Sequence record: SRR31156797_14836
Reading direction: 5' to 3' (one strand)
DNA length: 45,529 nucleotides
Shown here: in pieces, positions 3,634 through 23,092 of the stretch
Numbering within the stretch: position 1 is the stretch's first letter
How the letters are laid out: the number at the start of each line of letters is the position of its first letter
Notes under the pieces: generated by a model
What the model was told of the DNA's origin: nothing
Seen by the model: the letters and a program-made list of their open reading frames with translations, nothing else
Database searches by the model: none
Translations under genes and position numbers: made by a program

Positions 3634-3978
3634 TTAATCTAAACCTATATAAACATACTCGTCATCAATTTTTACAGGATAAGTTTTTATTTCATAATCT
3701 TCTCCGGAAAGACATTTGCCTGATTTCAGAGAGAAGGATTTTTTATGAAACGGGCAGGCTACTTTGGGTTCATCTCCATCAGATCCGATTAAGCCTCTGG
3801 AAAGCGCCTGCTGTTTTTGGTGAGGGCATTGGTTATCGGTGGCATACCACTCACCTTCTGATTTAAAGTAATAAATAGCTATTTGCTTATCGTCGATCAT
3901 TACAGCTTTACCTCCGTCTTCTTCAAACTCAGAAATTGGGGCTGCTTCTATCCATTTCATTATTGTTGTATCTGTCAT
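3634..3978 (-). CDS. nirD: Nitrite reductase (NAD(P)H) small subunit, Rieske-like
   Basis: DNQCPHQKQQALSRGLIG...VACPFHKKSF motifs. Start moved from the ORF-track 4044 (which overlaps nirB) to the ATG at 3978 (MTDTT...). Confidence 0.92.
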   Translation of the reverse strand: MTDTTIMKWIEAAPISEFEEDGGKAVMIDDKQIAIYYFKSEGEWYATDNQCPHQKQQALSRGLIGSDGDEPKVACPFHKKSFSLKSGKCLSGEDYEIKTYPVKIDDEYVYIGLD

Positions 3979-4037
3979 GTTCTTGTTTTTAATGGTAAAT
4001 AAATTGATGTTACCTCTTTGGTATAGATAAAATGATT

Positions 4038-6530
4038 CTACCAATTGGCTGGTTTCTTCATCTCGCGCATAGCGACAAACTGAATTGAATTATCAGTAGC
4101 ATCTGAATTAACAAAAGGTCTGAACTTTTTAATCATTTCCGGATCGTCCACCACTTTCTTCCATTCACAAGCATAAGAGTCAATCAAATTCTCCATATCT
4201 TTCTCTAATTGCTCACCGATACCCAGAGAGTCTTCAATTACAATTTGTTTAAGGTACTCTAAACCGCCATCTAAGTTATCTAACCATTTTGCAGTTCTCG
4301 TTAATGGAGCAGCTGTTTTTACATAGTACATTAAAAAGCGATCCAGATATCTGATGCATGTTTCTTCGTCAATATCGGTTGCGAATAGTAAAGCGTGTTT
4401 GGGATTGGCCCCTCCATTTCCACATACATATAAATTATATCCTTTATCAGTAGCGATAATTCCAAAGTCTTTACCGCGTGCTTCGGCACATTCTCGAATA
4501 CAACCGGACACACCTCCTTTTAATTTATGTGGAGACCGTAGTCCCTTATAACGGTTTTCAATTTCTAGCGCAAAAGAAACAGAATCCTGCTGCCCATAGC
4601 GACACCATGTTGATCCAACACAACTTTTAACCGTACGAAGAGATTTACCATAGGCATGTCCACTTTCAAATCCGGCATCAATTAACTCTTTCCATATTTG
4701 CGGTAGCTCTTCAACTCGAGCTCCAAACATATCAATTCGCTGACCTCCGGTAATTTTTGTGTACAGATCATATTTTTTAGCTACTTCTCCAATAGCAATT
4801 AACTTGTCTGGAGTGATTTCACCAGCGGCTACACGTGGAACAACGGAATAAGTTCCTCCTTTTTGAATGTTGGCTAAAAACTTATCATTTGTATCTTGTA
4901 TGCTGGCATGTTTGGTAATGTGTTCGTTCCAAATGCTTGCTAAAAGAGACGCGGTTAAGGGTTTGCAAATTTCACATCCACGACCTGTACCATGTTTATG
5001 AAGTAGTTCCGGGTAAGTTTTGATTTCTCCTAACTTAATTAAGTCGAATAACTCCTGGCGGGTATAATCAAAATGCTCGCAAATGACTTTTTTAACTACT
5101 TTACCACTGGCTTCTAACTTAGCAGTTAATAAGTCATCGAGCATCGGTACACATCCCCCACAACCGGTTCCTGCTTTGGTCGCTTTTTTAAGTTGACCTA
5201 CCTGTGTGATGTCAAATTCATCAACAGCTTCAATTAATCTTTTTTTGTTTACGTTTTCGCATGAACAGATCACAGCTTCATCAGGAAGATCAAGAACACT
5301 TAGCTCAAATCCTCCTTCTGCATTTTTAATAATTAAGCCTTCCGGGTTTGCAGGTAGTTTTATATTACTAGCATAGGTTTGGTAGAGCATATTATAATCT
5401 TCTGTATCACCTACTAAGATTCCTCCAAGTAAGTAATTGCCATCTTCTGAGATATAGATCTTCTTATAAATTCCGTTTGGGATATTGTGATAAACAATTG
5501 GTTTTGCTCCTTCCGTTACACCAAATGCATCACCAAAACTGGCTACTTCAATCCCTATTAGTTTTAATTTAGTAGATAAATCTGCTCCTTTAAATGAAGC
5601 TTCATCTCCTTTTAAATTGTTGGCACATACCTCAGCCATATCGTAACAAGGAGCTACAAGTCCCCATATAGCACCCAAAGCAAGAGCACATTCTCCAATG
5701 GCATAAATAGAAGGATCAGATGTTGTCATTTTTTCATCTACCATAATACCACCTCTTTCTCCAACGGTTAATCCACATTCCCTTGCCAATTCATCCCTTG
5801 GACGAATACCTGCAGAAATAACCACCATATCTGTTGTTAAAACCGACCCATCAACAAATTCCATCGCATCAACTTTACCATTTCCGTTAATGCTTTTGGT
5901 ATTTTTATTTAATAAGATATCCAGATCTAATTTTTCAAGTTCGGATTTAAGCATATCAGATCCACTATCATCCAGCTGGCGTGGCATTAAACGAGGAGCG
6001 AACTCTACGACGCTTGTTTTTAATCCGTCATCCATCACTGCTTTTGCAGCTTCTAATCCTAGCAACCCTCCGCCAATAACCGCTGCAGATTTTGCTTGAG
6101 GAACATAGGCTTTAATGGCATCTAAATCTTCTACTGTGCGATATACAAAAACACCTTTTTTGTCAACTCCGGGAATGGGAGGGACAAAGGCTGCTGAACC
6201 TGTTGCCATGACTAAAATGTCATAGGCAAATTCATCACCATGTTTATTAATCGCTAACTTTTTCTTACGATCAATGCTGGTTATTTTATAGCTGGTTCTT
6301 AATTCAATACCGTTTTCCTGGTACCATTCTCTAGGTGCCATTTTGAGATCGCGAACAGATGTGCCTGTATAATAATCAGTAAGGTGCACTCTGTCGTAGG
6401 CAGCCCATGGCTCTTCTCCAAAAACAGTAATATCGTATATTTCATATAATCCTTTTTCAATAAATTTTTCGCAAAATTTGTAGCCGGTCATTCCGTTTCC
6501 AACTACAATTAATTTCTTTTTTGTGCTCAT
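4038..6530 (-). CDS. nirB: Nitrite reductase (NAD(P)H) large subunit
   Basis: FAD motif VVGNGMTG, NAD motif IGGGLLGLE, two BFD-like Cys clusters (CSC...CGGC; CEHF...CEIC), siroheme/[4Fe-4S] ligands CVGSTWC and GCIREC. Confidence 0.97.
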   Translation of the reverse strand: MSTKKKLIVVGNGMTGYKFCEKFIEKGLYEIYDITVFGEEPWAAYDRVHLTDYYTGTSVRDLKMAPREWYQENGIELRTSYKITSIDRKKKLAINKHGDEFAYDILVMATGSAAFVPPIPGVDKKGVFVYRTVEDLDAIKAYVPQAKSAAVIGGGLLGLEAAKAVMDDGLKTSVVEFAPRLMPRQLDDSGSDMLKSELEKLDLDILLNKNTKSINGNGKVDAMEFVDGSVLTTDMVVISAGIRPRDELARECGLTVGERGGIMVDEKMTTSDPSIYAIGECALALGAIWGLVAPCYDMAEVCANNLKGDEASFKGADLSTKLKLIGIEVASFGDAFGVTEGAKPIVYHNIPNGIYKKIYISEDGNYLLGGILVGDTEDYNMLYQTYASNIKLPANPEGLIIKNAEGGFELSVLDLPDEAVICSCENVNKKRLIEAVDEFDITQVGQLKKATKAGTGCGGCVPMLDDLLTAKLEASGKVVKKVICEHFDYTRQELFDLIKLGEIKTYPELLHKHGTGRGCEICKPLTASLLASIWNEHITKHASIQDTNDKFLANIQKGGTYSVVPRVAAGEITPDKLIAIGEVAKKYDLYTKITGGQRIDMFGARVEELPQIWKELIDAGFESGHAYGKSLRTVKSCVGSTWCRYGQQDSVSFALEIENRYKGLRSPHKLKGGVSGCIRECAEARGKDFGIIATDKGYNLYVCGNGGANPKHALLFATDIDEETCIRYLDRFLMYYVKTAAPLTRTAKWLDNLDGGLEYLKQIVIEDSLGIGEQLEKDMENLIDSYACEWKKVVDDPEMIKKFRPFVNSDATDNSIQFVAMREMKKPANW

Positions 6531-6551: not shown

Positions 6552-9500
6552 TTATGATGGCACATAAGCGTTGGTGTCTTTAGCTTTTTCAATCATCATA
6601 GTGATTTCAGGTTTGCAACTTCCGCATCCTGTTCCAGCGTTGGTTTTTTCGCAAATCAATTTTAGGTCGGTAATTCCTTTTTCAATAAGTTCAGAGATGT
6701 TGCCTTCACCCACATTGTTGCAGGAACAAAGTACTTTTCCTTTTACCTGAACAGCAGAGGCATCGCCTCGTAGCAGTGTTTTTCTTTTGTTGTATAGTTC
6801 TGTTTTGTTTTGAATGAGATTTTTGTATTCTCCAAATTCTGTGCGGTCGCCCATTAATATAGTACCCACCATGATATCCTGATGGATAATACACTTTTTA
6901 TAGTATCGGTATTTTTTATCCAAAACAGTAACCTCTTCATAGCTACTGTCGTCTGGTGTTTTAATCATACCCACTGAGCATAGTTCAATACCAGGAAACT
7001 TGAGTATGTTCATAGGTACAGAACCTGTATAATAGGACATTAAATCTCCCATAAAATACCTCGCTAATATTGTTGCTTGTTGTTCCGCTGCTGAAGTAAT
7101 ACCATAAACATGGCCTTTAAATTCTGCAATTTCACCTAAGGCATAAATATCTTTTGAAGATGTTTCAAACCTCTCATTAATTATTACGCCTCTGTTAACC
7201 TGAATGTCGGCCTCTTTTAATAATTCAATATTTGGTTTTGTGCCGATAGCATAAACAATGGCATCGGTAGTGAATGATTTACCTGATTTTAAGTTTACTG
7301 TAGAATTACCATTGTTATTCGGAGATATGGATTCAACCTCTTCTTTCAAATACAGATCTACATTCATCTCACCAATGGTATCACTGAGCATTTGACTGGA
7401 GATTTCATCCAGCTGCTTGTCCATTAATCTTGCATTCCGATGGATTATGCTTACATGTATTCCAAACTCCAATAGTGAACTGGCTATTTCTAGACCAAGT
7501 AATCCTCCGCCAACAATAGTAACCGCATTCTTTCCTTCTAAATTTGTTTTTAATCGGTCAGCATCTTCTCTGCTTCTTATAGTATAAGTAGATTTAAAGT
7601 CAATCTTTACTCCGGGAGGAACGTTAGGACGAGAACCGGTGCATACAATCAGTTTATCGTAACTGTAATCATTACCCTTGTCGTCTATAATGTACTTTTG
7701 TTCCTTATTAATGCTAACGATTTCACATTCGCTAAATAATTCAATACCCCAATCCTTTAGATCACTTTCTTTATGTTTTTGAATATCCAGCCATGCTTTA
7801 TGTCCGGTTAAATATTCAGGTAACAGAATGCGATTGTAAAAAGGGTGTTTTTCTTTAGAAAATACCTTAATCGTATCATTCGAATTTTGGGAACGATATT
7901 CGGCAATGAATTGATATGCTGCAGCTCCTGCTCCAACAATGGCAATGGTTTCTGTTTCTTTAGTGAATTTTCTAACCTCAACTGCAGCGTATTTGAAATC
8001 AGGTTCTTTTGAAGCAGGATCAACGAGATTACTTGTTAAATTATTAGCTCGTGAGAAGTCTGAATTTAAAACTTTCCCCCAATGCATAGGTAAAAATACC
8101 ACCCCCTGTCTGATGTTATCTGTTACCACAGCTTTTACCTGAACATCACCTCTTACATTTTCAACCACGGCCATTTCACCATCTTTGATATTTCTTTCTT
8201 CCGCATCTTTCGGATGGATTTCTAAAAATGGTTCGGGGATATGCTTATTCAATTTGGAAAGCTTACCTGTTTTGGTCATGGTGTGCCATTGATCCCTGAT
8301 TCTACCTGTTGTTAAAATCAATGGAGCCTCTTTAGTTAATGGTTCCGATTGATGAGGCATTTCTATGGCAAAAAGTTGCGCTTTTGTATCCGGCGTATAA
8401 AATTTAAAATCGGTAAATAAACGTTCTTGTCCTTTGTCTTCTCCTTCAAAGAAAGGCCATTGAGCTGATTGATGCTCTTTTAGGTGGGCATAACTTAATC
8501 CACTAATGTTTATATTGGTACCTTTTGTTAGGCCTTTATGCTCATAAAAGATGGATTCACAATCAGGAAAGTCCATGTTCTTAAAACCCATTCTATTGGC
8601 AAAGTCTAACAGAATATCCACATCAGCACGTGCTTCTGCCGGAGGATCAATAGCTTTTGGTAAATAACTAATTCTTCGATCTGAATTAGTCATGGTACCT
8701 TCTTTCTCTAGCCATCCAGCAGCAGGAAGTACAACATCCGCAAACTGAATAGAAGCCGCATTTTTTGAAATGTCCTGTACAACAACAAGGTCCGCTTTCT
8801 TTAACGCTGCTTCGACTCTTCTAGCATTAGGTAAACTAACTAATGGGTTGGTACAAATAATCCAAATAGCCTTTAGTTTACCATCCAGTATAGCATCAAT
8901 CATTTGTGTGGCAGTGAATCCTGGTTTGTCAGGAATGCTGTCAACCTTCCAGTAGTTAGCTACTTCTTCACGGTGCTGAGGGTTAGCCAAATCGCGATGT
9001 GCTGGAAGCAAATTCGCCATTCCTCCAACTTCTCTGCCGCCCATGGCATTAGGCTGTCCGGTTAACGAAAAAGGGCCGTTACCAGGTTTACCTATTTTAC
9101 CTGTGATAAGTGAGATGTTTAAAAGAGAAAGGTTTTTATTTACCCCTATACTGCTTTGGTTTAAACCCATGGCCCACATAGAAATAAAACCCTTTGCATT
9201 TCCAATCAACTCCGCTGTTTCAATAATTAAGGCTAAAGGAACACCACAAGAATCTGCCAATGATTCAAGATTTTCACCATCTAGCTTTTCTTTAAGTGTA
9301 TTAAATCCGGAAGTGTATTTTTCTATAAATTCCGAATCGGTATATCCCCTCTCAATTAAAACCTTGGAAATGGCATAGTTTAAGTAAACATCAGTACCTG
9401 GCTTTAGTTGAAGATGAATATCAGCCATAAAACATGTTTGTGTTTTACGAGGATCAGCTACAATAATTTTAACATGCGGATTTTCCTGTTTGTGTTTTTC

Positions 9501-10055
9501 TATTCTCCGGAACAGAATAGGGTGACACCAGGCCGGATTAGCACCTGTGATAAAAATACAGTCAGATAATTCAATGTCGTTATACGAGATAGGTACAGCA
9601 TCCTCACCTAAAGCTTTTTTGTAACCCACTACTGCGGAACTCATGCATAAGCGCGAATTTGTATCAATGTTATTTGTGCCGATACAAGCCTTGGCTAGTT
9701 TATTAACCACATAATATTCCTCGGAAAGGCACTGACCTGAAACGTAAAAACCAACAGCGTCAGATCCATGCTTTTCAATTATAGAAGAAAAGGATGTAAC
9801 GATGGCGTTTAAAGCTTCGTTCCATGAAGTTTTTTGAAGATTATCTGATTTATTTTTTCGAATAAGAGGATGTAGCAAACGGTCTGAAGTGTCGTTAACA
9901 ACGTGTCCTAATCCCAACCCTTTAGAGCATAACATACCTTTATTAACAGGGTACATTTTGTTGCCCTCTACTTTTATGCTGTTGGTGTTGTCTTTAAGAA
10001 CGGTAACGCCACAACCTACGCCACAATACGAACAAGTTGACTGATATTTCTGCAT
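6552..10055 (-). CDS. nasA: Assimilatory nitrate reductase catalytic subunit (Mo-bisMGD) fused to a C-terminal FAD/NAD(P)H oxidoreductase and BFD-like [2Fe-2S] domain
   Basis: CSYCGVGC...C [4Fe-4S] motif, TNSRLCMSSA Mo-ligand segment, LTGQPNAMGGRE, TTGRIRDQWHTMTKT, then IVGAGAAA, IVGGGLLGLE and LCSCNNV...GTGCGSC. No Tat signal. Confidence 0.93.
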   Translation of the reverse strand: MQKYQSTCSYCGVGCGVTVLKDNTNSIKVEGNKMYPVNKGMLCSKGLGLGHVVNDTSDRLLHPLIRKNKSDNLQKTSWNEALNAIVTSFSSIIEKHGSDAVGFYVSGQCLSEEYYVVNKLAKACIGTNNIDTNSRLCMSSAVVGYKKALGEDAVPISYNDIELSDCIFITGANPAWCHPILFRRIEKHKQENPHVKIIVADPRKTQTCFMADIHLQLKPGTDVYLNYAISKVLIERGYTDSEFIEKYTSGFNTLKEKLDGENLESLADSCGVPLALIIETAELIGNAKGFISMWAMGLNQSSIGVNKNLSLLNISLITGKIGKPGNGPFSLTGQPNAMGGREVGGMANLLPAHRDLANPQHREEVANYWKVDSIPDKPGFTATQMIDAILDGKLKAIWIICTNPLVSLPNARRVEAALKKADLVVVQDISKNAASIQFADVVLPAAGWLEKEGTMTNSDRRISYLPKAIDPPAEARADVDILLDFANRMGFKNMDFPDCESIFYEHKGLTKGTNINISGLSYAHLKEHQSAQWPFFEGEDKGQERLFTDFKFYTPDTKAQLFAIEMPHQSEPLTKEAPLILTTGRIRDQWHTMTKTGKLSKLNKHIPEPFLEIHPKDAEERNIKDGEMAVVENVRGDVQVKAVVTDNIRQGVVFLPMHWGKVLNSDFSRANNLTSNLVDPASKEPDFKYAAVEVRKFTKETETIAIVGAGAAAYQFIAEYRSQNSNDTIKVFSKEKHPFYNRILLPEYLTGHKAWLDIQKHKESDLKDWGIELFSECEIVSINKEQKYIIDDKGNDYSYDKLIVCTGSRPNVPPGVKIDFKSTYTIRSREDADRLKTNLEGKNAVTIVGGGLLGLEIASSLLEFGIHVSIIHRNARLMDKQLDEISSQMLSDTIGEMNVDLYLKEEVESISPNNNGNSTVNLKSGKSFTTDAIVYAIGTKPNIELLKEADIQVNRGVIINERFETSSKDIYALGEIAEFKGHVYGITSAAEQQATILARYFMGDLMSYYTGSVPMNILKFPGIELCSVGMIKTPDDSSYEEVTVLDKKYRYYKKCIIHQDIMVGTILMGDRTEFGEYKNLIQNKTELYNKRKTLLRGDASAVQVKGKVLCSCNNVGEGNISELIEKGITDLKLICEKTNAGTGCGSCKPEITMMIEKAKDTNAYVPS

Positions 10056-10109
10056 GTTTTACTGTCTTGTGAAGAAGAATGTCCTTACGGTTTGTAAGAA
10101 TTAAGCTTC

Positions 10110-10160
10110 TTCTGATGTCAAACTAATATCAGAATCAACTCAAAAAGTAAGTAATCAAAA
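10110..10160 (-). promoter_or_regulatory. Non-coding leader motif, copy 1 (pyrimidine-rich tract plus hairpin) in the predicted nasA 5' UTR
   Basis: + strand TTCTGAT...ATCAGAA inverted repeat (10110-10134) overlapping ATCAGAATCAACTCAAAAAGTAAGTAATCAAAA (10128-10160), which recurs at 14169-14202. Confidence 0.6.
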
Positions 10161-10167
10161 GTTCAAA

Positions 10168-10175
10168 CAAAGATA
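10168..10175 (-). promoter_or_regulatory. Bacteroidota sigma70 -7 box for nasA-nirB-nirD
   Basis: Minus strand TATCTTTG matches TAnnTTTG, ~113 nt upstream of the nasA ATG. Confidence 0.6.
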
Positions 10176-10346
10176 GGGTATTTTTGTTTAAGTAAAAAAG
10201 ATAAAGAAATCATTTTTTATTTGAATTGTATTGGCAGAGTTAGTTTTGTGATGTATAAGTATTACAAACAGAATGAATTATGAATTTTGGTTGAAGGTGT
10301 TATTTTTAAATCAAAAAGAAGTAGCATGTATTAAAAGTACTATAAA

Positions 10347-10883
10347 ATGGTAACAGGAATATTAATAACCGGGGGTAAAAGTTCCAGAATGGGCTCAGAT
10401 AAAGCTTTTGTTAATTATAACGGAAAGGCATTAGGACAATGGTCTTCTGAGCTGTTAAATAAATATTGCGATCATATTATTGTAGCCAGCAATAATCCGG
10501 ATCATGCGATTTGGGGTGATGAGATAGTTGCAGATACTTTGGGAGACGGTCCTATTGCCGGATTGTATGCCGGATTAAGTAAGAGTAATACAGACTGGAA
10601 TCTGGTTTTGCCTTGTGATACGCCTAATGTAAGTGAGGCTGTTTTTGAAAAATTGTTAGAAAGTAAAGATGGGTATGATGCCGTAGTGGGCGTGGATGCA
10701 AATGGAAAACAACACCCTTTGGTAGCTTTGTATCACAGGCAGGTATTAGAAGTTATAAGCGGAGAGATTGAAAAAGGAAAACTGGCCATGATGAATATAC
10801 TGGATCAAATTCAGGTAGGTTTTGTTCAGTTTACCCAAGAGCATGTACTGGATAATATGAATTCAAAACAAGAATTAAGGTGA
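10347..10883 (+). CDS. mobA: Molybdenum cofactor guanylyltransferase
   Basis: ILITGGKSSRMGSDKA, GPIAGL, VLPCDTP, HPLVALY, terminal NMNS. Confidence 0.93.
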   Translation: MVTGILITGGKSSRMGSDKAFVNYNGKALGQWSSELLNKYCDHIIVASNNPDHAIWGDEIVADTLGDGPIAGLYAGLSKSNTDWNLVLPCDTPNVSEAVFEKLLESKDGYDAVVGVDANGKQHPLVALYHRQVLEVISGEIEKGKLAMMNILDQIQVGFVQFTQEHVLDNMNSKQELR

Positions 10884-11401
10884 TTGTAAACTCAATGATA
10901 ATGATTTGCGGAAGTGGTAAGAATGTAGGAAAAACCACTTTGTCGTCTTTATTAGTAAAGTATTTTTCTGACAAAGGGAAACGGGTTTATGCCTTAAAAA
11001 CTTCTTCGCATTTACATCAACTCGATAAAGATGAATGCATCCTAAAGGAGGGTGAAGATTTTGCCGTGGTAAAAGAAAGCCGGAAAAATAACAAAGATAG
11101 TTCATTACTATTACACGCTGGGGCTGTACAGAGTTACTACATTCAGGCATCGTATAAGTATACCATGTTTTCCCTGAGTAATGAGTTAGTACATCAATTT
11201 CCTTCTGATGCTGTTATTATTTGTGAATCGGGCGGCTTAAGGGAGTATATCCGACCTGCATTATTTTTATTTGTATTGGGAGACAAGATCGATAAAAATA
11301 TGCAATATCAACGAGAAGCAGATTATGAACTTAAGTTTGGAGAAGATTTTAATAATCAATTGATCTTAAACAAAGATATAGACCTGGAACGTTTTATTTA
11401 A
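10880..11401 (+). CDS. P-loop protein, divergent MobB-like
   Basis: N-terminal GSGKNVGKTT, ALKTSSHLH, KDS...AGA. GTG start overlaps the mobA stop (GTGA). Confidence 0.6.
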   Translation: MIVNSMIMICGSGKNVGKTTLSSLLVKYFSDKGKRVYALKTSSHLHQLDKDECILKEGEDFAVVKESRKNNKDSSLLLHAGAVQSYYIQASYKYTMFSLSNELVHQFPSDAVIICESGGLREYIRPALFLFVLGDKIDKNMQYQREADYELKFGEDFNNQLILNKDIDLERFI

Positions 11402-11832
11402 TGATGATGGTGCTGTTCTGCACAATCACAATTGGCTCCCCATTCACTGGTTCCGTCTGCAAAAAACTCATGTTTCCAAATTGGCGCTTCCTGTTTAACC
11501 CGGTCAATAATATAACGGTTGGCATCATAGGCTTCTTTCCTATGAGCGGAAGAAGTGACTACTACAACAGCCGTTTCGCAAATACCTACTTTACCTATTC
11601 TATGAACACAGGAAGCATGTTGTAACTCCCATCTCTGTTTAGCATCTTCAATTATACGGGCAATTGTTTTTTCAGCTAAAGGAATGTAGGCTTCATAATC
11701 AATATGCAATACTTCTTTGTTCTTGTTTAAATCGCGTACATCTCCACTAAACATGACAATGGCTCCTGAGCGATGGTGTTTAGCTTGGTTATAGTAATGT
11801 ACTACATCTATATTTTTATCTGTTATGTGCAT
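11398..11832 (-). CDS. moaE: Molybdopterin synthase catalytic subunit
   Basis: GAIVMFSGDVR, YEAY, HRIG, SSAHRKEA, VKQEAPIWKHE. Start set at ATG 11832 (MHITDK). Confidence 0.94.
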   Translation of the reverse strand: MHITDKNIDVVHYYNQAKHHRSGAIVMFSGDVRDLNKNKEVLHIDYEAYIPLAEKTIARIIEDAKQRWELQHASCVHRIGKVGICETAVVVVTSSAHRKEAYDANRYIIDRVKQEAPIWKHEFFADGTSEWGANCDCAEQHHHH

Positions 11833-11860
11833 GATTTTTTTTCTAAAAAATAATATTAAC

Positions 11861-12103
11861 TCAACCTCCACTTGATGGTGGAATTATAAAAACCTCCATT
11901 TGATCTTTGATCATTGTTTCCGTATCCACAAACTCTTCATTGATTGCTGCACGTGATCTGGAAAGTATTTCTGCTGCATCAGGATATTTTTCGGCTAATT
12001 CTGCGATAAGTTGTTTAACGCTTGTATTATCGTTATTCAATGTCCATTCTATGGCTTCTGGAAATGTACGTGTTAATCCTGCAAAAAAATGTATTTTAAT
12101 CAT
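11861..12103 (-). CDS. moaD: Molybdopterin synthase sulfur carrier subunit
   Basis: Ubiquitin-like size, IKIHFFA, AINEEF, C-terminal PPSSGG. Start at ATG 12103, just after the moaA stop. Confidence 0.92.
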   Translation of the reverse strand: MIKIHFFAGLTRTFPEAIEWTLNNDNTSVKQLIAELAEKYPDAAEILSRSRAAINEEFVDTETMIKDQMEVFIIPPSSGG

Positions 12104-12107
12104 GATG

Positions 12108-13052
12108 TTATCCTCCAATATGTCTCATGCTCATTTCATTCCCAATAAAACGAAGTGGTTGTTTTTGTTTAAGAGCCATCATTAATTCTTTATTGATAGA
12201 CTCACCTTGTTTAATTTTTTTCAGAACAGATAATCCTTTTACAGCACTAATGCAGCCATAAAGTTTTCCATAACTGTCCAGGCGTAGACGATCGCAGTCT
12301 TTGCAAAATGGTTCTGATTCGTTGGCGATTATACCGAATTCGTAATTGCCCTCGTTAATCTCCCAGTAGTTGGCTGTTGCTGATGCAATTCTAAGTTTTT
12401 TGTGCGTAGGATAAACCTGATGTATTTCATCCAATATTTCTTCCTGCGAAAAAAAGTAATCGTGATAATTATGGTGCAGGTAGCCCATTTTCATTAATTC
12501 CAGAAATCTAACGGGAATATCATATTTCATACCAAATTCAAGCAAAGGAATAATTTGATGATCATTGATTCCTTTTAAAATGACTGAGTTTATTTTAAGA
12601 TCAAAACCATTCTCTTTTGCTGCATAAATCCCTTTTAAAGTTTGTTTCAGCATGCGTTTACGAGTCATTTTTTCAAAAACGTTTTCATCTAAAGCATCCA
12701 GTGAAATGTTAATAGATTTAAGGCCTGCTTCTCTTAATCTGGGAGCAAGCTTTTCCAGGTAAAATGCATTTGTAGTAAGCGCAATATCTTCAATTCCACA
12801 ATCCTTAACCTGTTTAATTAAATGAACCACATGAGGGTACATAAGCGGTTCGCCACCAGTTATCCGTATCTTTTCAAGATTTAATTCATTATGGAGCACT
12901 TTTACAATATCAACCATATCAGCAGCTGTTAACGTGGGTTTTAACTGAGACCTGATATCATTTGCATGGTTTTCAGGAACACAGTATGTGCATGCCATGT
13001 TACAAGTGTCTGTTAAACTTAGTCTTAGCTTTTTGAATTTTCGTGTTTCCAT
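12108..13052 (-). CDS. moaA: GTP 3',8-cyclase (radical SAM)
   Basis: LRLSLTDTCNMACTYC, RITGGEP, TTN, FCKDCDRLRL...GC second cluster, C-terminal IGG. Confidence 0.95.
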   Translation of the reverse strand: METRKFKKLRLSLTDTCNMACTYCVPENHANDIRSQLKPTLTAADMVDIVKVLHNELNLEKIRITGGEPLMYPHVVHLIKQVKDCGIEDIALTTNAFYLEKLAPRLREAGLKSINISLDALDENVFEKMTRKRMLKQTLKGIYAAKENGFDLKINSVILKGINDHQIIPLLEFGMKYDIPVRFLELMKMGYLHHNYHDYFFSQEEILDEIHQVYPTHKKLRIASATANYWEINEGNYEFGIIANESEPFCKDCDRLRLDSYGKLYGCISAVKGLSVLKKIKQGESINKELMMALKQKQPLRFIGNEMSMRHIGG

Positions 13053-13067
13053 AATTTAAAATAATCG

Positions 13068-13075
13068 CGAAGATA
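13068..13075 (-). promoter_or_regulatory. Possible -7 box for moaA-moaD-moaE
   Basis: Minus strand TATCTTCG, one mismatch to TAnnTTTG, 15 nt upstream of the ATG. Confidence 0.35.
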
Positions 13076-13307
13076 TGAATGTATTACAGTTGATCTGAAA
13101 AAATGTTTATTGAATACATATCCAATTAGAGTTAATTTGCTTTATTTAGAGAAAAAAATGAACGAATATATCTCTTTGATGTTTATATAATTGTTTAAAA
13201 ATTAAAAATCTACAATTGTACCTCCCTTAAAATAGGCTTGTGTACTTAAAAATTGATATTTTTCTAGATTGGCCTGTTGTTTTGATAATTATTTAAAGCG
13301 TTAGTTG

Positions 13308-14021
13308 ATGTTTCCTAAAAGTACCGATTGTATAAGTTGTGTAAATGCAGAATGCCTTATAAAAAGACATATTTCTGAACCTGAATTGGAATCCTTTTTA
13401 GTGAGTAAAAATACAATGCGCTGTCGTAAAGGCCAGAGTGTAGTTCTAGAGGGTGCGCCAATTCATGGGGTGCATTTTGTGCACACAGGCAGAATTAAGC
13501 TTTTTAGTACAGGTATTAATGGAAGAGAACAGATATTGAGGTTTGCTATTAATGGTGAAATGCTGGGGCAAAGTGGATTTAGTTCGAGACAATGTTATTT
13601 GAATGGAGCTATAGCACTGGAGGATACTACGATGTGCCATTTTACTTTGGATGTAATGAAAAAGATGTTGCAGGTTTTTCCTAAACTAGCCTATGACTTT
13701 ATGGTATACTATGCAGAAGAATTGAATAGAAGCCAAACCAAAATAAGAATGTTTGCGCATATGACGGTTCGTGAAAAAGTCATTGATGCATTATTATATA
13801 TAAACAGAAAGTTCGGACATAAGAATGGTGCCATTGATATTCAGCTAAGTCGAAAAGAGATTGCTGATTTTGCAGGAACTACAGAAGAGCAGGTAATACG
13901 AATTTTGTCTGCCTTAAAGAAGGAAAATCTGATAGAAAGCTATGGAAAAAAGATTGGGATACCAGATTTGGAGGCATTAAAGAAGGAAATTGATGAACAT
14001 CATTTCTTTTTGCAGAGCTAG
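13308..14021 (+). CDS. Crp/Fnr family transcriptional regulator with N-terminal CxxCxxxxC
   Basis: CISCVNAEC, cNMP-binding fold (GRIKL...GEMLG), HTH LSRKEIADFAGTTEEQVIRILS. ATG at 13308 (TTG at 13305 also possible). Confidence 0.92.
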   Translation: MFPKSTDCISCVNAECLIKRHISEPELESFLVSKNTMRCRKGQSVVLEGAPIHGVHFVHTGRIKLFSTGINGREQILRFAINGEMLGQSGFSSRQCYLNGAIALEDTTMCHFTLDVMKKMLQVFPKLAYDFMVYYAEELNRSQTKIRMFAHMTVREKVIDALLYINRKFGHKNGAIDIQLSRKEIADFAGTTEEQVIRILSALKKENLIESYGKKIGIPDLEALKKEIDEHHFFLQS

Positions 14022-14053
14022 TTAAGTGCCATAAAATAAGATATATATAATTT

Positions 14054-14079
14054 AAACCTGCGATATAGCAGGTTTTTTT
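14054..14079 (+). terminator. Intrinsic terminator after crp/fnr-1 (possibly bidirectional)
   Basis: AAACCTGC-GATATA-GCAGGTTTTTTT. Confidence 0.85.
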
Positions 14080-14126
14080 ATGCGATAAGATTTATAAAAT
14101 AATGACAAAAAGACGGTAAAAACATA

Positions 14127-14202
14127 TCTGATTGCATATGATAGATGTTTTGCACTCCATATTTTTACATCAGAATCAATTCACAAAAGTAAGTAATCAA
14201 AA
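14127..14202 (-). promoter_or_regulatory. Non-coding leader motif, copy 2 (possible sRNA)
   Basis: TCTGAT (14127-14132) pairs with ATCAGA (14169-14174). ATCAGAATCAATTCACAAAAGTAAGTAATCAAAA differs from copy 1 by one substitution and one insertion. Confidence 0.5.
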
Positions 14203-14390
14203 ATCCATTAAGCAAAGGCATAGTGGTAAGGGATAAAAGAAAGGAATCTTTCATTTTTTTTGAGTCTATAAAAGAATTAAAGCTCTTAAATTCATTAGAA
14301 ATGAAAGTGGTATTATTTTTCAACACAAACTTATTAAAAATCAGTGTTGGTTTAACAATGGTTTTTAATGAGTTTAAAACTTAAACTCAC

Positions 14391-15740
14391 ATGAAAAAAT
14401 TATTCACATTTGTTTTAGCCGTTTTTTGTTTGGGAGCCTTAAAAGCTCAGGTCACTTTTACAGGGCAATACCGTGCACGAGGTGAAGTGCGTAATGGTTT
14501 TAAAACTCCGATTTTGGAAAATCAGGAGCCTGCTGCTTTTGTTGAGCATAGAGCTCGTTTGGAAGCACTATATAAAAAAGACAAAGTGGGCTTTAAAGTT
14601 TCTGTTCAGGATGTTCGCATTTGGGGAGAGACAGGTCAAATTAATAAGTCAGATCAATTATTAAGCGCACATGAGGCATATGGCGATTTTTATGCTTCCG
14701 ATAAAAGTACTTTCAGAATTGGGCGTCAGGAAGTAATTTATGATGATCACCGTTTCTTCGGTAGTTTGGATTGGGCCATGCAAGGACGTTCGTTAGATGC
14801 AGTAAGATATATGTATAAAAGTGAAGGTACTCAGTTTGATGTAATGTTAAGCTGGAATCAGCCAGGTTATGGTGATGGTGCTCCTGAGCCAGCTAAACTT
14901 GTAGGAAATACATATGCAATAACTACAGGAGGAGGAACAAATCCTCGTATTTTTAACCTTGGGTTACCTAAAAGCCAGCAGATGGTGTATTATAAAAAGA
15001 GTTTTGAAAGTGGTAGTGTAGGTATTATGTTGGAAAACGATTTATATAATTCGTCAACAACAAGCAGTGAAACCTATAGTAATATGACATTAGGTATTTC
15101 TCCAAGTTTTAAGTCAGGAAAATTAAAGTATGGAGGACAATTTTTCTACACCGGTGGAACTGCCAATAAAGTGGATGATGGCAATGGAGGAATTACCAAA
15201 ATAGACTTATCCGGATTCATGTTTAATGCTTATGTGCAGGCTACGGGAGTTACAGGATCTCCACTATTAGGGTTTGATTATTTAAGTGGAGATGATCAGA
15301 GTACCGGAGATAAAGTGGAAGGTTGGGCTCCTAAATACGGAACAAATCATAAGTTTTATGGTTTTATGGATTACTTCTATGTTGGTAATGGCCATGGAGG
15401 AGGTAATGCTGCCAGTGCAGGTTTAGTCGATATTTATTTAAAAACAACGTTTAAAATTGGAAAAGCTAAGTTATTGGCGCATTTGCATCAGTTTATGTCA
15501 GCAGAAGAACGGGTAAACGCAACAAGCGGAGAGAGCTACGATGGAGCTTTAGGAACTGAACTTGACTTGGTTTTTGTTAAAAAGCTAGCTCCTGAATTAG
15601 TACTAAAAGCCGGTTACTCACAAATGTTTGGAATTACGGAAACAATGAAACAATTGAAATTCGGTAACCCAGATCAGGAGATACAGGGAATGCAATCATG
15701 GGGATGGTTAATGGTTGCTTTTACACCTAAGTTTTTATAG
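14391..15740 (+). CDS. Outer-membrane beta-barrel porin, alginate-export (AlgE)-like family, nitrate-cluster associated
   Basis: Signal peptide (..LKAQ), RARGEVRNGF, QDVRIWG, RIGRQEVIYDDHRFFG, YGTNHKFYGFMDYFY, C-terminal beta strand. First gene of the nrt run. Confidence 0.8.
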   Translation: MKKLFTFVLAVFCLGALKAQVTFTGQYRARGEVRNGFKTPILENQEPAAFVEHRARLEALYKKDKVGFKVSVQDVRIWGETGQINKSDQLLSAHEAYGDFYASDKSTFRIGRQEVIYDDHRFFGSLDWAMQGRSLDAVRYMYKSEGTQFDVMLSWNQPGYGDGAPEPAKLVGNTYAITTGGGTNPRIFNLGLPKSQQMVYYKKSFESGSVGIMLENDLYNSSTTSSETYSNMTLGISPSFKSGKLKYGGQFFYTGGTANKVDDGNGGITKIDLSGFMFNAYVQATGVTGSPLLGFDYLSGDDQSTGDKVEGWAPKYGTNHKFYGFMDYFYVGNGHGGGNAASAGLVDIYLKTTFKIGKAKLLAHLHQFMSAEERVNATSGESYDGALGTELDLVFVKKLAPELVLKAGYSQMFGITETMKQLKFGNPDQEIQGMQSWGWLMVAFTPKFL

Positions 15741-15796: not shown

Positions 15797-17176
15797 ATGA
15801 AGAAATTAAATATGATCAAATTAAGTGTTGTGGCATTTGCAGCTTTATTGATGACTGCCTGTGGTGGTTCATCTTCGAAATCAAGTGCATCTTCAGAGGA
15901 TAGTACAGCTAAAAGTACTTTATTAATTGAAAAACCACAGTTAACCTTCGGTTTTATCAAGTTAACTGATATGGCTCCTTTAGCCATTGCAAAAGAGTTA
16001 GGATATTTTGAAGAGGAAGGATTGTTTGTTACCATTGAAGCACAAAGTAACTGGAAAAATGTATTGGATCGTGTTATTGACGGGGAATTAGATGGTTCAC
16101 ATATGTTAGCAGGACAACCAATTGCAGCTGCTGCCGGTTTTGGACGCCAGGCTAATCTGGTAACACCATTCTCAATGGACTTAAATGGAAACGGTATTAC
16201 AGTGTCCAATGCCATCTGGGATAGCATGAAAGAACATGTACCAACAGATGCAGATGGAAAGCCTGTTCATCCTATTAAAGCGGATGCACTAAAGCCTGTG
16301 GTTGAAAAGTATAAAGCCAATGGTAATCCTTTTAAAATGGGAATGGTATTTCCGGTTTCTACACATAATTATGAGATAAGATACTGGTTAGCTGCCGCAG
16401 GGATTCACCCGGGAATGTATACTGCCGACAATATTCAGGGACAGGTTGATGCTGATGTATTATTATCCGTAACGCCTCCGCCACAAATGCCGGCCACTTT
16501 AGAGGCAGGAACTATTTATGGATATTGTGTTGGTGAGCCATGGAATCAGCAGGCTGTATTTAAGCAAATTGGGGTACCCGTAGTTACTAACTACGAAATC
16601 TGGAAAAACAACCCGGAGAAAGTATTTGTAATGACAGAGAAGTTTATCTCAGAAAATCCAAATACAGCTATCGCCGTTACAAAGGCTTTAATCAGAGCAG
16701 GTAAATGGTTAGATGAACCAGGCAACAGACCAAAGGCAGTAGGTATTTTGTCTAAATCAGACTATGTGGGAGCTGACTCAGTAGTAATTGCTAACTCTAT
16801 GACCGGTACTTTTGAATTTGAAAAAGGAGACAAGCGTTCATTACCTGATTTTAATGTATTCTATAAATACCATGCAACCTATCCATTCTACTCAGATGCA
16901 GTTTGGTTCTTAACGCAGATGCGTCGCTGGGGACAAATTCCAGAATCAAAATCTGACGAATGGTATGCGAAAACCGCACAAAAAGTATATCGTCCAGATA
17001 TTTGGGAAAAGGCTGCAAAGTTATTAGTTGATGAAGGAAAAATCAGCTCTACAGATATTCCAACAACAGATGGATATAAGACAGCTTCAGGAGAATTCAT
17101 TGATGGTGTGGTATTCGATGGTAAAAAACCGAATGAGTATTTAACTAAGTTTTCTATTGGTAATAAAGATATTTAA
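15797..17176 (+). CDS. nrtA: CmpA/NrtA family nitrate ABC transporter substrate-binding lipoprotein
   Basis: Lipobox LLMTAC plus Ser-rich linker, [53 protein letters not shown]. Confidence 0.93.
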
Positions 17177-20204: not shown

Positions 20205-20918
20205 GTGCGTATGGTAAAAGCAACATGTGATACGTGTGAAAACACCAATTGTTTAATTCAGAAACATATACAAAAGGAAACATTACAGCCTTTTATCAAA
20301 CAAAAAAATGCTTTTGCTTGCCAGTCTGGACAACAGTTTATCCTAGAGGGAGCGCCGGTTAGTGGACTTTATTTTATTTATAAAGGAAGTGTAAAAGTTT
20401 ATAAACAAACGGATGAGAACAACTTTCAGATCATTCGTTTTTCAAAAGATGGAGAGATCGTAGGACATCGGGGATTTGGTACTAACTATGTATATGATAT
20501 TAGTGCCAGTGCATTAACCAATTCTGTATTGTGCCATTGGGGAACGGAAATTTTGATAGAGATGTTGCATAAAACGCCTGAACTGATGTTTGATTTTATG
20601 CTGTTTTATGCCGATCAGCTGCAAAAGAGTGAGTCCAATGCCAAACGTTTTGGAAAGATGAGCGTGCGCGAAAAAGTGATTAACGGACTTCTTTTTATTG
20701 AAAGCAAGTTTGGTCAATCCGATGGTTTTTTCAATCTCACCTTATCCCGTAAGGATATTGCTGATTTTGCCGGAACTTCGCAAGAGCAGGTGATTAGGGT
20801 GATCTCTAAATTAAAGAAAGAAGGACTATTGGTTACAAAAGGGAAAAAAATAGGTGTGCCTGATCTTCCTAAAATGGAAGCAGAACTAGGTGAGAATGGT
20901 TATTTTCTGGAAGGTTAG
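20205..20918 (+). CDS. Second Crp/Fnr family regulator with N-terminal CxxCxxxxC
   Basis: CDTCENTNC, LEGAPVSGLYF, GEIVGHRGF, HTH LSRKDIADFAGTSQEQVIRVIS. Clear paralog of 13308-14021. Start GTG 20205 or ATG 20211. Confidence 0.92.
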   Translation: MRMVKATCDTCENTNCLIQKHIQKETLQPFIKQKNAFACQSGQQFILEGAPVSGLYFIYKGSVKVYKQTDENNFQIIRFSKDGEIVGHRGFGTNYVYDISASALTNSVLCHWGTEILIEMLHKTPELMFDFMLFYADQLQKSESNAKRFGKMSVREKVINGLLFIESKFGQSDGFFNLTLSRKDIADFAGTSQEQVIRVISKLKKEGLLVTKGKKIGVPDLPKMEAELGENGYFLEG

Positions 20919-22600: not shown

Positions 22601-23092
22601 ATGGCAGATTTAAAGTTGGGTGTAATTACCATGAGTGACAGAGCATCTGCTGGTGAGTATGAGGATGAAAGTGGCCCGCTTGCAGAACAGTTATTCAATG
22701 ATTTTCTGCAAAGTAAAGGGGTACAGGTTGAAACTCAAACAGCAATCCTGCCAGATGACGAAGGAGAACTACGAAAGACTTTATTACAGTATCTCAAAGA
22801 GGTAAATATCATTTGCATTACAGGGGGTACGGGTTTGGGACCTAAGGACATTAGTCCAGATGTGGTAAAGCCTTTATTAACTAAGGAAATACCGGGTGTT
22901 ATGGAATATATCCGTGTGAAATATGGGGCAAAATTTCCCAATGCTTTACTTAGTAGAGCTTTAGCAGGAGTAATTGGCGATGTACTTATTTATGTGATAC
23001 CCGGAAGTCCTAAAGCAGTTAAAGAATATTTGGACGAAATTTTACCAACGGTATTACACTCTATTAAAATGATTCAAGGCGGAGGTCATTAA
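22601..23092 (+). CDS. mog: Molybdopterin adenylyltransferase (MogA/MoaB family)
   Basis: ITMSDRASAGEYEDESGP, TGGTGLGPKD, ALLSR, PGSPKAV. Confidence 0.88.
   Translation: MADLKLGVITMSDRASAGEYEDESGPLAEQLFNDFLQSKGVQVETQTAILPDDEGELRKTLLQYLKEVNIICITGGTGLGPKDISPDVVKPLLTKEIPGVMEYIRVKYGAKFPNALLSRALAGVIGDVLIYVIPGSPKAVKEYLDEILPTVLHSIKMIQGGGH

Follow-up and report, generated by a model that had tools for sequence, protein, structure and literature searches.

We identified a two-copy sequence motif in the nitrate assimilation gene cluster of an AT-rich Bacteroidota genome, contained in a stretch of 45,529 nucleotides (nt) from sequence record SRR31156797_14836 (hereafter the window). Copy 1 lies in the spacer between the divergent genes nasA and mobA, and copy 2 lies between crp1, a gene of the Crp/Fnr family, and the porin gene that begins the porin-nrtABCD transport operon. 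The initial annotation had treated copy 2 as having no gene to lead, and had proposed that it marks a small RNA (sRNA) of ~150 nt that is either a minus-strand decoy of the nasA leader or a plus-strand RNA complementary to it. On balance, we think that copy 2 is not an independent gene and that it forms the start of the porin-nrtABCD(-crp2-moeA...) leader, where it would be a control element shared with the nasA-nirBD operon. A shared cis-regulatory element of one pathway is an ordinary feature; the mirror placement of the two copies and their concerted evolution are unusual.

Sequence and conservation of the motif

The motif consists of two short boxes, A and B, separated by a linker of variable length:

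Motif copy 1, 10128-10165, plus strand: box A at 10128-10138 and box B at 10145-10154, in the nasA-mobA divergent spacer.
Motif copy 2, 14169-14207, plus strand: box A ATCAGAATCAA at 14169-14179, a linker of 8 nt, box B AAGTAAGTAA at 14187-14196, and a tail.

As first described, the copies have the same strand orientation. They are ~85% identical, differing by one indel and a few substitutions, and an 18-mer common to both is found at no other place in the window. The two spacers give a local alignment score of 63 for the same strand and 23 for opposite strands, compared with 25.5 +/- 3.3 (maximum 40) for dinucleotide shuffles.

We aligned 13 copies of the motif from 7 genomes. In all 13 sequences the two boxes show little or no variation, the linker is 6–9 nt long, and the flanks of the boxes have diverged to about 70% identity. 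A gapped alignment of copy 1 with copy 2 extends over ~95 nt only in the window and in G001, the nearest genome used for comparison (88-98% identity to the window in this region), while the copies share just 28-41 nt in G005, G002, G018 and G014. Because the longer homology is limited to these two close sequences, we rejected it as part of the element and define the motif unit as a core of ~35 nt.

Box B is a short GTAA tandem, and in some species only a second GTAAGT is found ~10 nt further on. Copy 2 of G005 (L023, ~9947-10009) carries a 14-nt insertion after box B that lengthens the GTAA-like tandem (GTAAGTAAGTAGGTAAGTGATT), which suggests that box B can grow by slippage. Several sequence variants are specific to one species and common to both of its copies: AATCAAAA in the window, AAGTGTAAA in G002, ATTGTAAGTA in G018 and GTAAGTAAGTAA in G014. 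The copies evolve in concert, a pattern that does not tell apart pairing between them, gene conversion and a co-evolving protein.

Distribution of the motif

A strict two-box pattern search over 133 genomes of the family identified the motif in 6 species of the window's genus (Saccharicrinis/Labilibacter clade), at the nitrate cluster. The second copy is kept in the homologous clusters: five of the six relatives have two copies, and in the sixth, where the contig ends, one is visible. Every copy sits at either nasA or the porin gene. When the same genomes were searched with a sequence-only covariance model of the 13 copies, 11 matches reached 33 bits or more, every one a known copy, and the next match scored 22 bits. 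This 22-bit match, in G003, is inside a histidine kinase coding sequence and was rejected as a chance match rather than a third copy. We likewise rejected as chance two strict-pattern matches (in G014:C19 and G046) inside the 3' end of a conserved open reading frame (ORF) of 300 amino acids (aa), and a third near-match in G001 inside the coding sequence of a TonB-dependent receptor. With only two real copies in G001, a dispersed repeat of the repetitive extragenic palindromic (REP) or miniature inverted-repeat transposable element (MITE) kind is ruled out. As there are only two sites per genome, the motif is a local two-site element of the cluster. The covariance model search of the 133 genomes gave no further copy in antisense from which a matching sRNA might be transcribed.

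A pattern scan of metagenomic sequence found nitrate-cluster flanks at none of the 80 loci inspected among the matches listed. One metagenome contig (L159, 430-500) resembles the box A-linker-box B-tail arrangement over ~35 nt, in a spacer without nearby nitrate genes. This sequence may be a chance match or a distant relative of the element.

The porin-nrt promoter upstream of copy 2

On the minus strand, copy 2 indeed leads no gene. No ORF of at least 60 aa follows it, and the spacer is overlapped only by ORFs of 22-53 aa. On the plus strand, however, the description fails, as the motif is preceded by a conserved -7 box and followed by the porin gene. The upstream features are, in order:

14054-14081, plus strand: crp1 intrinsic terminator, in which a AAACCTGC-loop-GCAGGTTT hairpin precedes a T-run.
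14108-14114, plus strand: AAAAGAC box, an upstream promoter element separated by 36 nt from the terminator and by 45 nt from the -7 box.
14160-14167, plus strand: -7 box of porin-nrtABCD, TATTTTTA, of the Bacteroidetes type (TAnnTTT[G/A]), directly before copy 2.

The promoter consensus reported for the Bacteroidetes primary sigma factor is a -7 box of TAnnTTTG with an optional TTTG at -33 (PMC7366714). TATTTTTA agrees with TAnnTTTG at 7 of 8 positions. TAnnTTTA precedes copy 2 in all seven species, with variable nn positions and at -11 to -13 relative to the motif, and TAnnTTT[G/A] is found at all six loci compared from Prolixibacteraceae (Draconibacterium, Mangrovibacterium and Sunxiuqinia). 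The crp1 terminator has an invariant stem and a variable loop in 7/7 species. In a regular-expression scan the complete layout of terminator, 36 nt, AAAAGAC, 45 nt and TAnnTTT[G/A] was recovered in six of seven sequences of the window's own clade and at five of the six Prolixibacteraceae loci (L049, L050, L053, L055 and L060). The sequences without a match were G002 and L047, and the sixth Prolixibacteraceae locus has a variant box at N44. The promoter layout is homologous in the two families and conserved to the base.

In Prolixibacteraceae the -7 box is 35-133 nt from the porin ATG, and at three loci the distance is 35-38 nt. A box so near the start codon argues that this is the operon promoter. 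The corresponding distance is 210-334 nt in the window's clade. From these distances the leader appears to have been lengthened in the window's clade, with copy 2 as its probable first ~35 nt. The predicted transcription start of porin-nrt is at ~14171-14174. In Prolixibacteraceae, TAGAATTAC, a sequence similar to box A, comes after the -7 box, and box B is absent. The porin leaders of G013 and G014 contain ~100 extra nt just before the ATG.

The porin promoter resembles Bacteroidetes primary-sigma promoters in having TAnnTTT[G/A] at a fixed place, with the TA and TTT kept and nn variable in two families. It differs in that the last base is A rather than G in 7/7 own-clade sequences and in that the usual -33 TTTG is missing. 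We did not find TTTG ~19 nt upstream of the porin -7 box; the only TTTG (14149-14152) is 7 nt before the box, and the same is true in Prolixibacteraceae. At this distance of 7 nt from the -7 box, the conserved region (14022-14167 in the window) contains a conserved ATGTTTTGCA. The lack of a -33 TTTG, with conserved AAAAGAC and ATGTTTTGCA boxes instead, suggests a promoter that may depend on an activator and carry putative protein sites.

The candidate nasA promoter and leader

The features on the nasA side of the cluster are:

10168-10175, minus strand: candidate -7 box of nasA-nirB-nirD, TATCTTTG.
10119-10126: TTAGTTTG, downstream of the motif on the nasA strand.
10071-10112, minus strand: nested hairpin of the nasA leader, lying between the motif and the start codon.

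A stretch of 74-75 nt separates the motif from the nasA ATG in all six species, although its sequence has diverged. A minus-strand TAnnTTTG occurs 111-112 nt from the nasA ATG in four of five species, and the fifth, G002, has TTAGTTTA at 108 nt. Given these two distances, copy 1 read on the minus strand would occupy about +3 to +36 of the predicted nasA leader. The two promoters would then present the element in mirrored order: the porin -7 box is followed by box A and then box B, and the nasA -7 box by the complement of box B and then that of box A.

In the nested hairpin, 5 of the 7 outer-stem pairs have changed on both sides among the 6 species. Throughout the leader (10056-10127) the stem sequences differ in every species with pairing kept, and the inner stem is species-specific. 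Box A of the nasA leader has an alternative pairing partner at 10110-10116, a segment shared in part with the 5' arm of the outer stem, and alternative folds of the modelled leader are possible.

On the plus strand of the same spacer, TATTTTTG (10179-10186) is back-to-back with the nasA -7 box TATCTTTG, 3 nt apart, in the window and G001. This divergent box, which may serve mobA-mobB, is not kept in G005, G002 or G018. We considered and rejected copy 1 as a mobA leader, as there is no TAnnTTT[G/A] on the plus strand at the equivalent place. The distances from motif to ATG that match in the window (217 and 220 nt) are not kept in the relatives. The nasA genes of Prolixibacteraceae were set aside as a comparison for copy 1, as nasA there follows an MFS transporter gene, and the promoter before the latter is a different one.

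Structure of the porin-nrt leader

The plus-strand region 14172-14393 folds with z = -4.41, and none of 200 shuffles was as stable. Consensus folding of seven species with RNAalifold identified two conserved hairpins:

P1, 14205-14226, plus strand: CCAUUnnGCnnnGGCnUAnUGG; 8 pairs with 92.9% of cells paired, 3 pairs changed on both sides.
P3, about 14327-14375, plus strand: 18 pairs, 6 with compensatory changes; ends ~15 nt before the porin ATG.

The consensus structure has 87.4% of cells paired, compared with 34-48% after a shift of the 3' partners by 1-3 columns. Compensatory changes are found in 9 of 26 pairs, a count reached by none of 500 shuffles. The structure was derived from the same seven-sequence alignment that was used for these statistics, which flatters the numbers. 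The consensus energy of the leader is -12.44 on the plus strand and -4.56 on the minus strand, and that of P3 is -6.3 and -0.16, respectively; the G-U pairs accordingly favour the plus strand. The modelled fold and its covariation argue that the porin-nrt leader is a structured plus-strand RNA.

A perfect 8-bp hairpin, GAGTTTAA-AAC-TTAAACTC, is located at 14370-14388. It overlaps the 3' arm of P3, ends 2 nt before the porin ATG and is largely conserved in the relatives. This hairpin may gate translation; to our knowledge, the phylum is one without Shine-Dalgarno sites. An attenuator in the porin leader was considered and rejected, as a terminator scan of 13900-14500 gave the crp1 terminator only. 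A weak hairpin with a T-run near 14238-14260, judged by eye, is present in some relatives only.

A proposed shared operator at the two transcription starts

Under the reading that we favour, transcription of porin-nrt would start ~5 nt after the -7 box at 14160-14167, and the transcript would run through box A, box B, P1 and P3 to the porin ATG at 14391. The two-box element would serve as an operator, recognized as double-stranded DNA and lying across both transcription starts. By binding it, a cluster-specific regulator would switch the transporter and reductase operons together. Either of the cluster's two FNR-like Crp paralogs may be this regulator.

The polarity of the motif bears directly on how it could be recognized. 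The motif runs in opposite directions with respect to the two operons, so that no one RNA-binding protein could recognize it in both leaders. The arrangement fits recognition as duplex DNA, and the readings that remain are duplex DNA or RNA-RNA pairing of the leaders. The two Crp/Fnr paralogs are the only regulators encoded in the cluster, and they are weak candidates for the binding protein.

The element shares several properties with the operators of local regulons: there are two sites per genome, these lie at the promoters of linked operons, and the cluster encodes its own regulators. It differs from such operators in being ~35 nt long and non-palindromic, with a variable linker, and in lying mirrored within the initially transcribed regions; protein binding, moreover, is a prediction here.

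Several observations weigh against a shared operator. The element is not palindromic and contains no clear FNR/CRP-type box, and matches to TTGAT-N4-ATCAA in the window are at the level of chance (66 found, 63.9 expected). A linker of variable length (6–9 nt) would be atypical of a site for a single dimeric regulator. Prolixibacteraceae have the same crp1-porin-nrt-crp2 gene order without box B, so that the protein that binds the element could be one other than the Crp paralogs. Variants specific to a species and common to both copies are accounted for more naturally by gene conversion or RNA-RNA pairing than by a protein site. In addition, a consensus -7 box is absent from the expected place upstream of nasA in two of six species, and the starts of both operons are predictions from sequence.

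Possible pairing between the two leaders

The main rival is that the 5' end of the porin-nrt mRNA (~14172, plus strand) pairs in trans with the 5' end of the nasA-nirBD mRNA (~10163, minus strand) over ~35 nt, which would link the transporter and reductase messages in their stability or translation. We regard this as rather unlikely. The initial annotation had proposed a plus-strand RNA in this region that is complementary to the nasA 5' untranslated region. This proposal is partly supported. Such an RNA is almost certainly present, but as the leader of the porin-nrt mRNA; its pairing with the nasA leader is a prediction. The 5' ends of the two leaders would be complementary, near-perfectly over ~35 nt, if nasA transcription starts after the box at 10168-10175.

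If both predicted starts are right, the duplex has a Duplexfold energy of -49.9 kcal/mol in the window and -35.7 to -47.7 kcal/mol in five relatives. The mean energy is -40.5 kcal/mol for leaders of the same genome and -30.7 kcal/mol between genomes, and of 120 permutations the observed assignment ranks first. This comparison excludes G001 because of its closeness to the window. However, the within-genome signal would be given equally by identity arising from gene conversion or from a shared protein. The presence of species-specific variants in both copies is compatible with pairing leaders, and a linker of 6-9 nt could be tolerated as an internal loop of the duplex. In the nasA leader, box A could instead pair with a segment next to it (TTCTGAT...ATCAGAA, 10110-10134); this segment overlaps the 5' arm of the next hairpin, and a switch is conceivable. 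The differences between the copies of one genome do not have the form expected of maintained pairing, as there is no enrichment for G-U with this strand combination: 7 are tolerated as G-U, 16 belong to the opposite transition class, 25 are transversions and 11 are indels, many of these positions being shared by descent. Nor is there an obvious benefit in mutual pairing between two messages that are needed together.

A more specific version, in which the leaders are kept mutually complementary across the genus, pairing in trans couples uptake to reduction, and the shared variants are compensatory co-evolution, appears unlikely. The likeness to trans-acting base-pairing sRNAs and to mRNA-mRNA pairing lies in the ~35 nt of near-perfect complementarity between the predicted leaders. 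The differences from trans-acting sRNAs are that there is no separate transcription unit, conserved structure or third copy, and that the partner is itself an mRNA leader. If true, RNA pairing would be an unusual direct cross-talk between two mRNAs of one pathway with no dedicated sRNA.

A possible duplicated segment

It is also possible, if still less likely, that the two copies are a duplicated segment without a shared regulatory role. A piece of one leader would have been copied into the other spacer and occasionally homogenized by gene conversion. Each copy would now serve only the promoter or leader in which it lies, for instance within the initially transcribed sequence or through mRNA stability. 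Box A alone (TAGAATTAC or CATCAGAA) follows the porin -7 box in Prolixibacteraceae and in another Bacteroidales genome. This occurrence outside the clade makes the porin copy look ancestral and the nasA copy derived. Gene conversion would account for the shared species-specific variants, and homology that spans ~95 nt in the window and G001 and 28-41 nt in the other species is also in favour of this reading. However, boxes A and B are near-invariant in 13/13 sequences while their flanks are ~70% identical, and the spacing of motif and nasA ATG stays at 74-75 nt in 6/6 species. The invariant boxes and the fixed distance indicate selection on both copies.

The proposed minus-strand sRNA

A minus-strand sRNA of ~150 nt, running from ~14205 to the hairpin at 14054-14079, mimicking the nasA leader and titrating a regulator, is highly improbable. 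Copy 2 does resemble the start of the nasA leader when read on the minus strand. A perfect TAnnTTTG, TACTTTTG, is also present within the motif on this strand in the window and G001. However, TACTTTTG is missing in three of the seven sequences (G002, G013 and G014), and we found no conserved promoter, own-strand terminator or structure for such an RNA.

The individual features on which the proposal was based are present in the window and have other explanations or limited conservation. The minus-strand sequence proposed as a near -7 box (TGCCTTTG, 14213-14220) departs from TAnnTTTG and is not kept, the position reading TGCCGTTG in four of six relatives and TACCGTTG in G002, so that five of six differ. 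On the opposite strand TGCCTTTG falls within the conserved hairpin P1. The hairpin at 14054-14079 exists, but in the window it scores as an intrinsic terminator (14054-14075) on the plus strand only, where the T-run lies; its position directly after the stop codon of crp1 identifies it as the terminator of that gene. In G013 and G014, A-runs and T-runs are found on both sides of this hairpin, and termination would be possible both ways there. The inverted repeat AAAACAT...ATGTTTT (14119-14151) is likewise present in the window and is not kept in the relatives.

The body of the proposed sRNA has no consensus structure between 14080 and 14212, where the RNAalifold energy is 0.0 on both strands. 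The 159-nt minus-strand fold has z = -1.67, with 11 of 200 shuffles as stable, and most of its energy comes from the stem of the crp1 terminator. The same region coincides with the porin promoter elements, whose spacing is fixed even in Prolixibacteraceae without the full motif, and these elements account for the conservation of 14100-14168. A search of Rfam over 9900-14500 gave no match at the gathering score; two matches (E 0.4-0.8, 22 bits) both lie over the terminator. The further suggestion that copy 2 is the relic leader of a deleted minus-strand gene is not supported by the relatives, all six of which keep crp1 followed by porin with no minus-strand gene between them.

Comparison with nitrate-responsive leaders

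NasR of Klebsiella and NasT of Azotobacter and Paracoccus are RNA-binding antiterminators that act on the leaders of nitrate assimilation operons. The loci described here are similar in having structured 5' leaders before nitrate assimilation operons. However, the window encodes no ANTAR or NasR-type protein, the terminator scan gave no terminator-like site in the leader, and the polarity of the motif is opposite in the two leaders.

Organization of the nitrate cluster

The genes of the cluster are:

6552-10055, minus strand: nasA, an assimilatory nitrate reductase with a fused flavin reductase and BFD-like 2Fe-2S module (Pfam).
4038-6530, minus strand: nirB, after nasA (Pfam).
3634-4044, minus strand: nirD, after nirB (Pfam).
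10347-11401, plus strand: mobA-mobB, divergent from nasA.
Minus strand, next after mobA-mobB: moaE, moaD and moaA.
13305-14021, plus strand: crp1, Crp/Fnr family with the Pfam domains cNMP_binding and HTH_Crp_2; candidate local regulator.
14391-15740, plus strand: porin gene (Alginate_exp-like), the first gene of its operon (Pfam).
15797-17176, plus strand: nrtA, after the porin gene and followed by nrtB, nrtC and nrtD.
20205-20918, plus strand: crp2, the second Crp/Fnr gene, after nrtD.
Plus strand, after crp2: moeA, moaC and then a gene with a MoCF_biosynth domain (22601-23092).

The nasA product is a fusion of 1167 aa that contains a molybdopterin nitrate reductase, a pyridine-nucleotide disulfide oxidoreductase, Rubredoxin_C and a BFD-like 2Fe-2S domain. 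Synteny of the porin-nrt operon is kept in six relatives. In G014 (L024, 13272-18787), ~5.5 kb is inserted between moaE and mobB relative to the order in the window.

The crp1 and crp2 genes are paralogs with ~45% mutual identity that flank the porin-nrt operon as a pair, and the pair is also kept in Prolixibacteraceae. Compared with NCBIfam, crp1 gives Fnr, FnrL and CRP matches that are all below threshold. Crp1 and Crp2 each have an N-terminal C-x2-C-x4-C motif and a later cysteine, like the iron-sulfur sensors of the FNR type.

Implications

For annotation, the spacer at 14022-14390 is best read as the promoter and 5' leader of porin-nrt and not as an sRNA gene. The regulation of nitrate assimilation in Bacteroidota appears poorly charted, as a literature search showed no study of a regulator among the top 15 of 17 papers listed. 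The locus offers a compact and testable layout, with a promoter architecture common to two families, two FNR-like Crp paralogs and a genus-specific two-box element. This element stands at the beginning of the uptake operon and of the reduction operon.

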